Sequence record: OR845257
Length of the DNA stretch: 58,949 nt
Reading direction: 5' to 3' (one strand)
DNA from: Escherichia phage ECO95 1-6-1
Below, in pieces: positions 1 to 58,949 of the stretch; position 1 is the first letter of the stretch; every line of letters starts with the position of its first letter. The notes below the pieces were generated by a model. That model did not search any database and was not told where the DNA came from. It worked only from the letters and a program-made list of their open reading frames with translations. The position numbers and the translations under genes are program-made.

Positions 1-77
1 AACCACCGTAGATCTCTTCCAGAATTTCGGAAGAAGTAGTCAACTCTTCGCGCTCGATGTTATACACATCCGGGCGT
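1..77. repeat. 77-bp terminal sequence identical to 58873-58949 (assembly overlap, circular contig)
   Basis: exact identity of the first and last 77 bases. Confidence 0.85.
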
Positions 78-424
78 TTGCTTTCGCGCGCTGAGATAAC
101 CCACATCCCTTCGCATTCCGGTTTGTCCGGGAAATCGGTGTCGCCGTCTTTGATGAACAACATGGACGGGGCAACTTTCAGCGCGCCTGTCTTGTGGTTC
201 TTCTTGGTGACTTCGATCTGCTCACGGATGATTTTCTCGATCTCGCCGTGGCTTTCTTTCGGCATCAAAAGCGTCAGCGAGTATTTCGGCTCGCCGCCGT
301 CTTCGCCGCCGTACGGCTTATCGAGGTGCGGGTAAGAAGCACGTACGTTAGAAATCTTGATGTGACCAGATTTGTACAGCACGCCATTCTTGACTTTCTT
401 CGCAGGGACTAATTTCTCGGCCAT
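1..424 (-). CDS. SSB-like protein (T7 gp2.5 / DUF2815-like), N-terminal part; the ORF continues in frame across the assembly junction into 58700-58949
   Basis: ATG at 424 preceded by GAGGA; translation MAEKLVPAKKVKNGVLYKSGHIKISNVRASYPHLDKPYGG... reads in frame through position 1 into the terminal ORF 58700-58939; acidic C-terminal tail; sits beside polymerase and exonuclease genes. Not in the ORF track because it is cut by the window edge. Confidence 0.5.
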   Translation of the reverse strand, partial: MAEKLVPAKKVKNGVLYKSGHIKISNVRASYPHLDKPYGGEDGGEPKYSLTLLMPKESHGEIEKIIREQIEVTKKNHKTGALKVAPSMLFIKDGDTDFPDKPECEGMWVISARESKRPDVYNIEREELTTSSEILEEIYGG

Positions 425-478
425 CTTAATATCCTCGGTTTACTGTTTTACGGGTTTACTTTCTACGGTTTTACGGGT

Positions 479-1816
479 TTACACTTCGTCATCATCTTCG
501 TCGTCCCACGCCCCGGAATATTTGCCGTCCAGTGGTGGCCGCTTATCGGTCAGCGGTGCCAGTGTCGGCTTGCCTTCCGGCTTGTAGACTATCCCCGCGA
601 TGATGTTCGGCGCGCCAGCCCGGGACACGCCCAATTCATCCCTAAGCACTTCTTCCATCTGCGCCGGAGTACGCAGTTTGCGCTCGATGTACTTGTCCTC
701 TTCGATATCGAGGAACTTGAACAGCGCGATCGCATCTTTCTCGTTGGCGAATTTGCGGTTTGTCCGCGACTCCACCAGCTTTTGACCCGGTACCTTCTCG
801 CCGTTCATTGCGCGGCGTTCCAGTTCGAAATCAAGGCGCGAGAACCAGTTTTCGACCACCTTGCGGTATGGCAGGATCTTCGCCATCTGCTCGGTTGTCA
901 GGTTCCCGAACTGCGCACGCCGGAATTTATACTCCTGCGCCAGCGCATCACGCAATACTGACATTTCTTCCTCCCCGAATTCGGATTCAAGGAATTCCAC
1001 ATCCCCGCCCACCGCGCATTCCATCATGTACGCTATCGCTGCGCAGTTATGTGCTGCCCGGCAAAAGCGACACCCTTTCAGGGATGCGCGGCGCGGCGCG
1101 GTAAGGCTCCATGCCGCTGCAATCCGCTCCCGGGCGTACTCCGCAAACTCCAACAACTCGTCAATCGTGATTTCCCACGTATCGAAGTGGTCGAGTCGCG
1201 GCTGCGCAATCCGGATGATGATACGGTCAAACTCGTATTCATCCGCGAAAGCGCGGTACGCACCGTACGCGTAAAGTAGCGCCTGCGGGTTCCCTTCCGC
1301 GAAAACCTGAACGCCAGTACCGTATTTCAGGTCGGTCACGATCAGGGTGCGGTCACGGATGATGATGTTATCCGCCGTTCCGCCCTGTGCGACAAACTCT
1401 TCCGGTTCTTCGTCAGGTTCATCCGGGTTCGCTCGCGGCATCAGGTCGGTGAACCATACCCTGATTTCCGTGAACATTTCACCCTCTTCAAATCGGCACC
1501 AGTCCACATACTCCTGAACGTAGTCGATCATTGACCGCGTGATAGGGATGTCATGGCTGACATCGCCTTCCGTGATCGTCTCGACGGTACCGATTAAATG
1601 GGTTGGCCGGACATCCGTTCGCAGCCATTGTTCGGCGATTCCGTGGGCCACCGTTCCTTCCGCCGCCTCGTAGATGGTTTCGTCATGCTCGAAAAGCCCT
1701 GCTATCAGGCTTCCTGAACATGCCATCCAACGCGCTGACGCCGAAGGCGCGAAGATTGAGTGACCGCCACCGCCGAATTCCCGCATGATGCGGACTAACA
1801 GCGACTTACTACTCAT
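479..1816 (-). CDS. PD-(D/E)XK Cas4-like exonuclease (DUF2800-like) with C-terminal Cys cluster; ends ...DDEDDDEV
   Basis: 445-aa ORF; DLKYG and Cys-rich CRFCRAAHNC motifs typical of Cas4/RecB-family phage exonucleases; adjacent to the SSB-like gene. Confidence 0.5.
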   Translation of the reverse strand: MSSKSLLVRIMREFGGGGHSIFAPSASARWMACSGSLIAGLFEHDETIYEAAEGTVAHGIAEQWLRTDVRPTHLIGTVETITEGDVSHDIPITRSMIDYVQEYVDWCRFEEGEMFTEIRVWFTDLMPRANPDEPDEEPEEFVAQGGTADNIIIRDRTLIVTDLKYGTGVQVFAEGNPQALLYAYGAYRAFADEYEFDRIIIRIAQPRLDHFDTWEITIDELLEFAEYARERIAAAWSLTAPRRASLKGCRFCRAAHNCAAIAYMMECAVGGDVEFLESEFGEEEMSVLRDALAQEYKFRRAQFGNLTTEQMAKILPYRKVVENWFSRLDFELERRAMNGEKVPGQKLVESRTNRKFANEKDAIALFKFLDIEEDKYIERKLRTPAQMEEVLRDELGVSRAGAPNIIAGIVYKPEGKPTLAPLTDKRPPLDGKYSGAWDDEDDDEV

Positions 1817-2138
1817 TCGGATACGCCTTTATCGCATTGAGGAATCGGTGTTGGCCGACTCGCTCAATCGTCGCTACTAATGCCCTAGCGCCTGCCCCGC
1901 TGTAATTATTGCGGCCTGCGTTAAAGCGAGTCTTCGCCACGTCGTCCCACCAGACGTCACATACTCGATAGCCCGATGCAGCATGGGTTACGAGCAGCGG
2001 CGCTTCGAGTTTCGAGACAGGGGAAGTAACTCTGAACAGCACATCGCGATCACCGATCTGGAAACGAAACTCCGCCCACGTACGCGCGAGAACTGCGCCG
2101 CCGGATGTTGCTACGTTGGTGAAAGTAATGCTGGTCAC
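1809..2138 (-). CDS. hypothetical protein
   Basis: 109-aa ORF, overlaps the start of the downstream nuclease gene by 8 nt (coupled), same strand as neighbours. Confidence 0.45.
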   Translation of the reverse strand: MTSITFTNVATSGGAVLARTWAEFRFQIGDRDVLFRVTSPVSKLEAPLLVTHAASGYRVCDVWWDDVAKTRFNAGRNNYSGAGARALVATIERVGQHRFLNAIKAYPNE

Positions 2139-58633: not shown

Positions 58634-58650
58634 GTCAACGCTCCTATATG

Positions 58651-58673
58651 AAAAAAGCCCGCACACGGCGGGC
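58651..58673 (-). terminator. rho-independent terminator between the SSB-like and DNA polymerase genes
   Basis: GCCCGC-cgugu-GCGGGC hairpin followed by UUUUUU on the minus strand, just upstream of the polymerase RBS. Confidence 0.6.
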
Positions 58674-58699
58674 CTTGAATTACCGCCCGAGGGCGTAAA

Positions 58700-58949
58700 T
58701 TAAACTTCGTCTTCCCAATCTTCGTCTTCATCCCACGCATCAGACGTGTCAACGCGACCTTCACCGAACGGTTCGTCGTCTTTGCGCTTGAGAACGGAAA
58801 TCAGGTTGGCGTTGACGCGTTTGCCGAATTTGTTTTCCTGCGACCACGGACGGATGACGACAGACACCCAACAACCACCGTAGATCTCTTCCAGAATTTC
58901 GGAAGAAGTAGTCAACTCTTCGCGCTCGATGTTATACACATCCGGGCGT
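58700..58949 (-). CDS. SSB-like protein, C-terminal part (continuation of 1-424 across the junction); ends ...DEDEDWEDEV
   Basis: frame continuity across the 77-bp terminal overlap. Confidence 0.5.
   Translation of the reverse strand, partial: RPDVYNIEREELTTSSEILEEIYGGCWVSVVIRPWSQENKFGKRVNANLISVLKRKDDEPFGEGRVDTSDAWDEDEDWEDEV
58873..58949. repeat. second copy of the 77-bp terminal overlap
   Basis: exact identity to 1-77. Confidence 0.85.

Follow-up and report, generated by a model that had tools for sequence, protein, structure and literature searches.

The stretch of DNA analyzed here (the window) is the 58,949-nucleotide (nt) sequence record OR845257 from Escherichia phage ECO95 1-6-1. It represents the complete genome of a Chi-like siphophage (Chivirus, Casjensviridae) in which a set of otherwise unrelated proteins share a short acidic C-terminal tail ending in -D-E-V. 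Its TerL region has 100% nucleotide identity with Salmonella phage vB_SenS_BPS1, and 99.6% with Siskin. Positions 1-77 are repeated exactly at 58873-58949, and the record is a circularised, circularly permuted assembly with a true length of 58,872 base pairs. This is why the open reading frame (ORF) for the gp2.5-like single-stranded DNA-binding protein (SSB) looks truncated: the gene crosses the assembly junction, running from 424 to 1 and then from 58872 to 58700, and encodes 198 amino acids (aa) at full length. All 73 annotated Siskin proteins map to the window (73/73), mostly with 95-100% identity and in three cases with 84-90%, and the Siskin annotation (about 73 proteins) was used as an independent gene model for the tail counts.

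Nine ORFs carry an exact -D-E-V followed by a stop codon. A preliminary description of this DNA had spoken of at least ten such proteins; the ORFs and coordinates it listed are exact, but the count is nine, with related variants in addition. The nine genes are as follows.

479-1816, minus strand: DUF2800 / PD-(D/E)XK exonuclease, 445 aa, tail ...GAWDDEDDDEV (tail codons at about 482-511).
3126-5711, plus strand: PrimPol + D5-like (DUF5906) primase-helicase, 861 aa, tail ...DPFDDEDEV.
5747-6070 (ORF 5747-6088), minus strand: DNA-binding regulator of the helix-turn-helix (HTH) type HTH_37, 107 aa, tail ...SDAENDEV.
12583-12954, plus strand: DUF7609 protein, 123 aa, tail ...DVADDDEV.
14097-15170, plus strand: RdgC-like recombination-associated protein, 357 aa, tail ...LNDEDDDEV.
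22350-23066, plus strand: phrog_8098 protein of unassigned function, 238 aa, tail ...CEDFEGDEV.
47066-47359, minus strand: DUF7443 protein, 97 aa, encoded immediately behind the major capsid gene in the lambda FI position, tail ...SGAEDEV.
54227-54796, minus strand: small terminase TerS (DUF1441), 189 aa, with the motif twice in tandem, ...KFNGDEV-DDDEV.
58700-58949 (ORF 58700-58939), minus strand: C-terminal part of the gp2.5-like SSB (DUF2815/PF10991), tail ...SDAWDEDEDWEDEV.
1-424, minus strand: N-terminal part of the same SSB gene.

All nine tail ORFs are real genes. They match annotated Siskin coding sequences (CDSs) with 99-100% amino-acid identity; the choice of start codon has no influence on a C-terminus. 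The tails fall outside the Pfam domain matches. This includes the acidic segment of the SSB, which can also be written ...AWDEDEDWEDEV and lies beyond the end of the Pfam domain; in a model of the protein made with AlphaFold2 (AF2) from 90 homologs, the tail has a predicted local distance difference test score (pLDDT) of 62-69 compared with 92.6 for the whole protein. For the FI-position protein the C-terminal half is Lys/Asp-rich and disordered.

Four further genes carry variants of the tail, two of them weak, and one gene is listed for its lack of it.

2201-2605, minus strand: hyp04 (phrog_7721), 134 aa, variant tail ...GNGEEDDV; found in all eight genomes compared below.
54783-56342, minus strand: SNF2 helicase, 519 aa, a second flavor of tail, ...KGVWDDEE, without a terminal aliphatic residue.
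18312-19016, plus strand: Dam-type N6-adenine methyltransferase, weak variant tail ...KMWDEI (Yonseivirus ortholog ...QWDEV).
15882-16622, plus strand: phrog_6886 protein, 246 aa, weak variant tail ...TEGEVEI (Yonseivirus ortholog ...EEDIEV).
56594-58633, minus strand: family A DNA polymerase (PolA), 679 aa, no tail, ends ...GWEGYFYRKD.

That the DNA polymerase, TerL and the structural proteins lack the tail had been noted before and is confirmed here. The gene at 18312-19016 is annotated as a phosphoadenosine phosphosulfate (PAPS) reductase in relatives, but matches Pfam Dam (PF05869) with E = 1e-29. Some UniRef and GenBank records label hyp04 as a 'RecT protein'. Its AF2 model (pLDDT 63) consists of a helix, a 35-residue disordered Lys/Thr/Gly linker, a small three-helix bundle and a disordered tail, and a Foldseek search with this model gave no fold match at E < 1. 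The RecT label therefore looks unfounded on the basis of the model.

The number of -DEV ends is far above what is expected at random. Based on composition, 0.022 such ends would be expected among the 73 proteins, and based on the internal frequency of DEV (9 in 18,139 tripeptides) 0.036, compared with the nine observed (binomial P ≈ 1e-19 to 1e-21). Shuffling of the last 4, 6, 8, 12 or 20 residues gave means between 0.75 and 0.05 and a maximum of five in 20,000 trials. The mean of 0.75 comes from the shuffle of the last four residues, which keeps the composition of each tail and never gave more than five in 20,000. Tail-like ends were seen in just 2-3 of about 390 ORFs that are not genes. A chance origin of the shared tail is excluded, and the suspected enrichment beyond composition has held up.

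Eight complete genomes, one from each of eight Casjensviridae genera, were used for comparison of orthologs. The -DEV terminus had been proposed as something to look for in related phages, and the tail is indeed retained in the orthologs. Which residue comes last varies from lineage to lineage, whereas the proteins of one genome agree in it, except for pPM_01 where it is mixed. We refer to the lineages as V-, L-, I- or F-type according to this residue.

Chivirus, Redjacvirus, Enchivirus and Yonseivirus (recorded hosts Salmonella, Providencia, Enterobacter and Klebsiella): -[D/E]-E-V on primase, exonuclease, SSB, TerS, FI-position protein, RdgC and DUF7609 protein.
MA12 (Pectobacterium): -[D/E][D/E]-L on the same set minus the DUF7609 protein, for which no MA12 ortholog was found, and in addition on the SNF2 helicase and others, with a total of 15 tail-like ORFs.
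LAh_7 (Aeromonas): -D-[D/E]-E-I on 10 ORFs, among them those for primase, hyp04, exonuclease, SSB, helicase, TerS and RdgC.
AH2 (Burkholderia): by the scoring rule, -L on primase, hyp04 and exonuclease; the ending is ...[D/E]GL on SSB, TerS and FI-position protein.
pPM_01 (Proteus): last residue mixed (F, M, I, L); exonuclease, helicase and TerS without a tail.

The number of tail-like proteins ranges from 6 to 15 per genome, and relatives from Xanthomonas are also L-type. The same replacement is seen protein by protein. The exonuclease ends in DDDEV in the V lineages, DDDL in MA12, DDDEI in LAh_7 and FDDL in AH2, and TerS in DDDEV, DDEEL or DDEEI depending on the lineage. The RdgC-like protein has EDDDEV in the V lineages, EDDEL in MA12, DDDDI in LAh_7 and VEDDM in pPM_01, while the FI-position protein has SDDEV, ADDEV or ADEEV in the V lineages, KEEEL in MA12, DADDDL in pPM_01 and GAEGL in AH2. 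The SNF2 helicase has a full tail in MA12 (DDDEL) and LAh_7 (DDDEI), and the phrog_8098 ortholog in Enc34 ends ...PWCEEI. The residue before the last also differs, being E in 84% of the V-type tails, whereas D is more common than E in the L and I types. For the SSB, 120 of 120 homologs end in an acidic run followed by L, I, V or M, with V confined to the Chi-like clade; 117 of 120 hyp04 homologs end in V.

Genes that are specific to one lineage have the tail of that lineage. The HTH_37 regulator is limited to Chivirus, and since it has no ortholog in the seven other genera compared, it is a lineage-specific gene bearing its lineage's tail. The same is seen for the phrog_8098 protein, for a homolog of hyp51 in Enc34 (...DEDNEV) and for the lineage-specific gp20 and gp28 of AH2 (...DDDL and ...ADDL).

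Such uniform ends might reflect the DNA rather than the protein, i.e., composition bias, a signal at gene ends (ribosome-binding site, terminator or repeat) or gene conversion between GAY/GAR repeats. The tails are encoded by low-complexity GA-rich DNA, and a phage exonuclease together with an annealing-type SSB could support short-homology recombination. We nevertheless consider an artefact of this kind extremely unlikely. Besides the rejection of the shuffling nulls, the nine tails use both Asp codons (GAC/GAT), both Glu codons (GAA/GAG), all four Val codons (GTG/GTT/GTA/GTC) and all three stops (TAA/TAG/TGA), and the codon variety extends to the L-type genomes, which use four Leu codons in their tails, and the I-type genomes, which use three Ile codons. 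This variation points to selection on the protein and not on a DNA motif. The DNA downstream of the nine tails consists of unrelated sequences, and the 3' context of the tail genes varies, with terminators after some and overlapping genes after others. Overlap with a ribosome-binding site (Shine-Dalgarno), a repeated cassette and gene conversion are ruled out by the varied codons and stops and the unrelated downstream DNA. Composition or GC bias is ruled out by the shuffling nulls and by the composition of LAh_7, a genome with 62% GC and the lowest Ile content (4.1%) that yet has I-type tails.

A wider sample of 59 further loci from viral contigs, retrieved by exonuclease alignment, repeated the lineage pattern for primase, hyp04, exonuclease, SSB, helicase and TerS. 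One metagenomic genome is F-type (hyp04 DDDF, SSB DDDF, helicase VEDF), although its closest relatives are I-type. Using 29 clade representatives at 70% exonuclease identity, we found that the last residues agree within genomes in 128 of 155 pairs (0.83), compared with 0.43 ± 0.04 and a maximum of 0.59 in 20,000 trials when residues were permuted among genomes. With 19 deeper clade representatives the agreement was 0.79 vs. 0.46 for permuted residues. In a neighbor-joining tree of the exonuclease with the tail removed, at least four to five apparently independent concerted switches can be seen; examples are a genome pair with IIIIII ends (L040/41) that is sister to a pair with LLLL ends (L033/34), and the F-type genome nested among I-type ones. 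Val, Ile and Leu codons differ by a single mutation, and without selection on the residue the tails of one genome should drift apart. The tails constitute a non-random motif that is selected at the protein level, conserved in orthologs and covarying with the lineage.

A second type of acidic end, Trp followed by zero to three acidic residues and without a terminal aliphatic residue, is also found, as in the Chi SNF2 helicase (...VWDDEE). In the I-type clade it occurs on the exonuclease (...GAWDDE / ...GIWDD) and the primase (...ADVWE), and such ends were seen at loci L032, L035-L037, L039 and L043 of the wider sample. The Trp-type end may represent a different register or a second reader.

Outside the family, the homologous exonuclease-SSB-PolA module of Staphylococcus phage 3A has an exonuclease ending ...AEDDFDKL, an SSB ending ...AEDDFDEL...DEDFL and a primase-helicase ending ...LEDLI, while its TerS and SNF2 helicase are without a matching end. 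The matching ends indicate that tail sharing inside the replication module is old, and Casjensviridae have extended it to packaging and other proteins. In lambda-like phages outside the family, and in RcJoli, the TerS homologs are acidic but have Asp or Glu as the last residue, so the aliphatic end of TerS is an adaptation internal to the family.

The reading we prefer, with a probability of roughly 0.6, is that the tails are a short C-terminal docking motif for one common, probably phage-encoded site. The motif would be a disordered run of 3-8 Asp/Glu residues, often preceded by an aromatic residue, with one aliphatic residue carrying the free carboxylate in the last position; in this phage the end would be D-D-E-V-COOH. 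It would be borne by otherwise unrelated DNA-acting proteins (primase-helicase, exonuclease, SSB, RdgC-like protein, TerS, FI-position protein, HTH regulator, hyp04 and others), all of which would compete for, or be recruited to, one common binding site. Such a site may hold the acidic run and the free carboxylate with a basic rim and take up the last side chain in a small hydrophobic pocket, and its carrier is most likely encoded by the phage. Proteins of replication, recombination and packaging would in this way be gathered or exchanged at one hub, as an enlarged version of the docking of T7 gp2.5 and gp4 on gp5.

A common docking partner had been one of two suggestions in the preliminary description, and the concerted change of the terminal residue across 6-15 proteins per genome lends it strong new support. 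As unrelated proteins keep and switch their last residue together, a shared, co-evolving reader is a simpler explanation than separate DNA mimics that fold back on themselves, and on this basis we infer that a single receptor exists. The other suggestion was precisely such a DNA-mimic autoinhibitory tail. Each tail would then act independently in cis on the DNA-binding surface of its own protein, with no shared partner, as in the fold-back models for T7 gp2.5, T4 gp32 and E. coli SSB. Most of the tail bearers do bind DNA, and the TerS proteins of unrelated lambda-like phages are acidic-ended as well. For the Enc34 SSB, the protein lacking the 21 C-terminal residues binds double-stranded DNA as well as single-stranded DNA, and the visible part of the tail sits in the β-sheet groove of an adjacent molecule in the crystal (PMC5686142). 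However, autoinhibition in cis needs negative charge alone. It leaves unexplained the invariant terminal aliphatic residue (all 120 SSB homologs) and the presence of the same residue on 6-15 unrelated proteins per genome, and it does not predict that the last residue switches in concert across unrelated proteins. In addition, the FI-position protein and hyp04 have no recognized DNA-binding domain. We therefore find it quite unlikely as the sole explanation, though it may coexist with docking as in T7 gp2.5.

The shared reader could also be a host factor such as a protease or its adaptor, a chaperone or a replication protein, with the tail serving as a signal for stability, turnover or hijacking. 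Tails that agree within a genome would likewise follow from a single host reader, bacterial proteolysis is known to depend on C-terminal residues, and the Pfam scans described below gave no peptide-binding domain among about 40 of the phage's own proteins. The distribution of tail types speaks against it. The Salmonella Typhimurium phage SD-12_S18 (Lavrentievavirus) has the ends ...TDVF, ...DDDL and ...DDDI and no tail on TerS, i.e., tails of the Proteus lineage (F/L/I), whereas Chi-like phages of Salmonella Typhimurium are V-type. Since SD-12_S18 and Chi are recorded on the same host species but differ in their tails, tail type follows the phage lineage and not the host, and a host-determined tail type is disfavored. 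Similarly, Providencia and Proteus belong to the same bacterial family (Morganellaceae), but Providencia phage Redjac is V-type and the Proteus phages are mixed. A degradation tag would also be hard to rationalize on an abundant SSB and on late packaging proteins. A host reader is therefore very unlikely in our view, and because tail type follows the phage tree and differs on the same host, the reader in the docking model is probably phage-encoded.

As for the identity of the receptor, Pfam scans of about 40 window proteins gave no PDZ, TPR, clamp or other peptide-binding domain, a result that does not include a remote-homology or structure search of all proteins. PDZ class III ligands have the form [D/E]-x-V-COOH, but a PDZ reader was set aside because the scanned proteins include no PDZ protein and because the known enterobacterial ones are, to our knowledge, periplasmic or membrane-bound. 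The only non-structural proteins that are present in all eight genomes and tail-less are VRR-NUC and TerL.

The DNA-binding cleft of the gp2.5-like SSB is a tentative candidate. It is attractive as a hub because the tail of T7 gp2.5 binds its own cleft, the Enc34 tail sits in the groove of its neighbor, and RPA70N provides an analogy. The DNA polymerase, which the preliminary description had put forward as partner, is a special case of the docking model that we regard as unlikely. Both T7 tails dock on the polymerase gp5; within the module, the tail is oldest on SSB, primase-helicase and exonuclease; and PolA itself never bears the tail, having the conserved end ...FYRKD in every PolA lineage and ...FYMKD in Staphylococcus phage 3A. 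This candidate does not agree with the AH2/Nazgul-like clade, where the polymerase is unrelated but L-type tails are kept on primase, hyp04, exonuclease, SSB and TerS, and where the replacing enzyme (phrog_1252) itself often ends ...R[KR]ED[ST]L. Furthermore, the patch of basic residues at the front of the T7 polymerase (K587-R591) aligns to ...TKPF... in the Chi-type enzymes, in an uncertain alignment at about 20-25% identity. At the positions of T7 K587/K589/R590/R591 this low-identity alignment gives ...Y-TKPF..., with at most one or two basic residues. No PolA column tracks the tail type, and it is not obvious why TerS, the FI-position protein, the methyltransferase or the regulator should dock on a polymerase. 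The likelihood that the SSB cleft and the polymerase leave falls to TerL, a different phage protein or a protein of the host.

The replacement of the polymerase is a feature of a sub-clade of the family. There, PolA has given way to a 650-770-aa polymerase (phrog_1252) that has no Pfam match and is encoded in the same place between the SSB and VRR-NUC genes.

L055 (AH2), 6270-8321: phrog_1252 polymerase, no detectable similarity to Chi PolA.
L038, L044, L046-L050, L052, L053, L056, L057, L060-L062, L068 and L073: further phrog_1252 loci.

Several observations weigh against a single docking site. Column co-variation in PolA, VRR-NUC, TerL, SSB, exonuclease, primase, helicase, TerS and hyp04 did not reveal a receptor, and no column separates I-type from L-type in the alignments of PolA, VRR-NUC, SSB, exonuclease, helicase and TerS. 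The one separating column in TerL and the two in primase may be due to chance; TerL E293, which is E in the I and V types and non-E in the L types, is too little to build on. In the SSB, contrast pairs of L- and I-type (171 sequences) have 62% identity vs. 77% for the controls and are hence confounded by divergence. AF2 gives no confident docking of the SSB tail onto its own fold, and the last 11 residues of the Enc34 SSB, including DEV, are disordered in the crystal (PMC5686142). The Trp-type ends with zero to three acidic residues are left unexplained by a common site. The permutation test behind the agreement of 0.83 drops close relatives, yet some deeper phylogenetic structure stays in, and the V-type state arose once, so that for this phage the concerted change amounts to one evolutionary event. 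Finally, the Proteus/Lavrentievavirus lineage has mixed ends (F, M, I, L) and no tail on exonuclease, helicase and TerS. A strict single-pocket model is therefore not valid everywhere, and the tails of the Proteus lineage have apparently drifted apart.

A few observations concern other parts of the window. The ORF at 19094-20068 (plus strand) encodes 324 aa compared with 177 aa in Siskin; the alignment is limited to 140 residues at the C-terminus (84% identity), so that the part before them has been replaced or extended. A 667-aa ORF at 47328-49331 (plus strand) runs antisense to the genes for the major capsid protein, decoration protein and protease; it probably does not code and is a shadow ORF of this GC-rich region. 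Upstream of the DUF7609 gene, positions 12215-12461 contain five direct repeats of about 33 nt (core CTTACTTGAAAAAG.TACCCGGTTG) with a spacing of 43-71 nt, possibly an array of operators or iterons. In relatives a 51-aa CDS is annotated that overlaps copies 3-5 (12350-12502), and this CDS may therefore be spurious. A 77-nt intergenic element is present in two copies with 82% identity (9439-9515 and 11840-11916), both of which hold a minus-strand sigma70-like promoter (TTGACG-18-TATATT and TTGACG-18-TACATT, respectively) upstream of leftward genes.

If the docking reading is true, a widespread phage family would have one short peptide linking its replication, recombination, DNA modification, gene regulation and packaging of the genome; apart from T7 with its two proteins, we know of no tailed phage for which such an organizing principle is documented. 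Questions such as the coupling of replication to packaging, the handover of SSB-coated intermediates and the avoidance of cross-talk between related phages would become testable. It also gives a rule for annotation, as the tail-bearing DUF7609, DUF7443, phrog_8098 and hyp04 proteins are predicted members of a DNA-handling network. The tail peptide could serve as bait, or could inhibit a group of phages of Salmonella, Klebsiella and Proteus, and the V, L, I and F lineages represent a natural co-evolution data set for finding the receptor.

In a more far-reaching form, which we consider possible though on the whole not probable, the Casjensviridae would have a private, lineage-specific 'C-terminal address code'. 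One phage hub, which could be the SSB cleft, would read [Asp/Glu]n-Val/Leu/Ile-COOH on its clients, a large share of the DNA-handling proteins of the phage (primase-helicase, exonuclease, SSB, SNF2 helicase, RdgC, methyltransferase, regulators, small terminase and head-assembly factor) and so couple replication, recombination and packaging in an assembly or condensate, while switches of the last residue could insulate co-infecting relatives from each other. The hub would be a viral counterpart of the clamp/PIP-box or RPA70N hubs, working on a different motif.

Among known systems, the closest resemblance is to T7, which the preliminary description had rightly chosen for comparison. In T7, gp2.5 (...DEDGDF) and gp4 (...NDTDF) are the only ones of 56 proteins with an acidic tail and a hydrophobic end. 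Both tails dock on a basic patch of gp5, the Phe at the end is essential, and gene 5 is where suppressors have been mapped (PMC12339929). The tails described here share with these a disordered acidic tail with one terminal hydrophobic residue and a free carboxylate on an SSB and a primase-helicase. The acidic C-terminal segment lies outside the folded domain on both proteins (...PFDDEDEV on the primase-helicase), and the hydrophobic C-terminal residue is conserved (120/120 SSB and 117/120 hyp04 homologs). The SSB also has the gp2.5 fold (DUF2815/PF10991), the Enc34 ORF6 protein being a structural homolog of gp2.5 (PMC5686142). The two systems differ in scale, with two tail proteins of 56 in T7 vs. 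nine exact tails and three to four variants here, and in the terminal residue, which is aromatic in T7 but aliphatic (V, L or I by lineage) here. They also differ in the bearers, which here include TerS, a head-assembly-position protein, RdgC, a regulator and a methyltransferase. Moreover, conservation of the gp5 basic patch does not extend to the Chi polymerase, and replacement of the polymerase has not removed the tails.

The C-terminal tip of bacterial SSB (...DDDIPF), whose readers have a basic rim and a hydrophobic pocket, organizes many genome-maintenance proteins. It resembles the phage tails in combining an acidic run with a hydrophobic C-terminal residue, but there one tail serves many receptors, whereas here the tail is found on at least nine proteins and does not end in IPF. 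Clamp-binding motifs (those for the β-clamp, the PIP box for PCNA, and the C-termini that bind T4 gp45) offer the logic of many clients competing for the pocket of one hub, which is the logic we propose for the phage tails. They are hydrophobic motifs of the QLxLF type, while the motif here is acidic and no clamp gene was recognized in the about 40 window proteins scanned with Pfam. The basic cleft of RPA70N, which binds acidic-hydrophobic motifs of many checkpoint and repair proteins, is a precedent for an SSB cleft as hub, although its motifs are internal and helical instead of being defined by the C-terminus, and it has no homology to the phage SSB.

The Enc34 ORF6 protein (DUF2815) is a direct ortholog of the window SSB with 88% identity. 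Its acidic tail has been described, and deletion of the 21 C-terminal residues changes the DNA specificity, but the tail was treated as a property of the SSB only and its sharing with other proteins is unmentioned (PMC5686142). In the open-access papers searched, including those on the Enc34 SSB and YSD1 structures, no mention was found of one tail borne by many proteins of Chi-like phages. In more general terms, the tails show the enrichment, the conservation in orthologs and the concerted change of a shared, co-evolving short linear motif, and we infer that docking tails of the T7 type have been expanded in these phages into a proteome-wide, lineage-specific motif.

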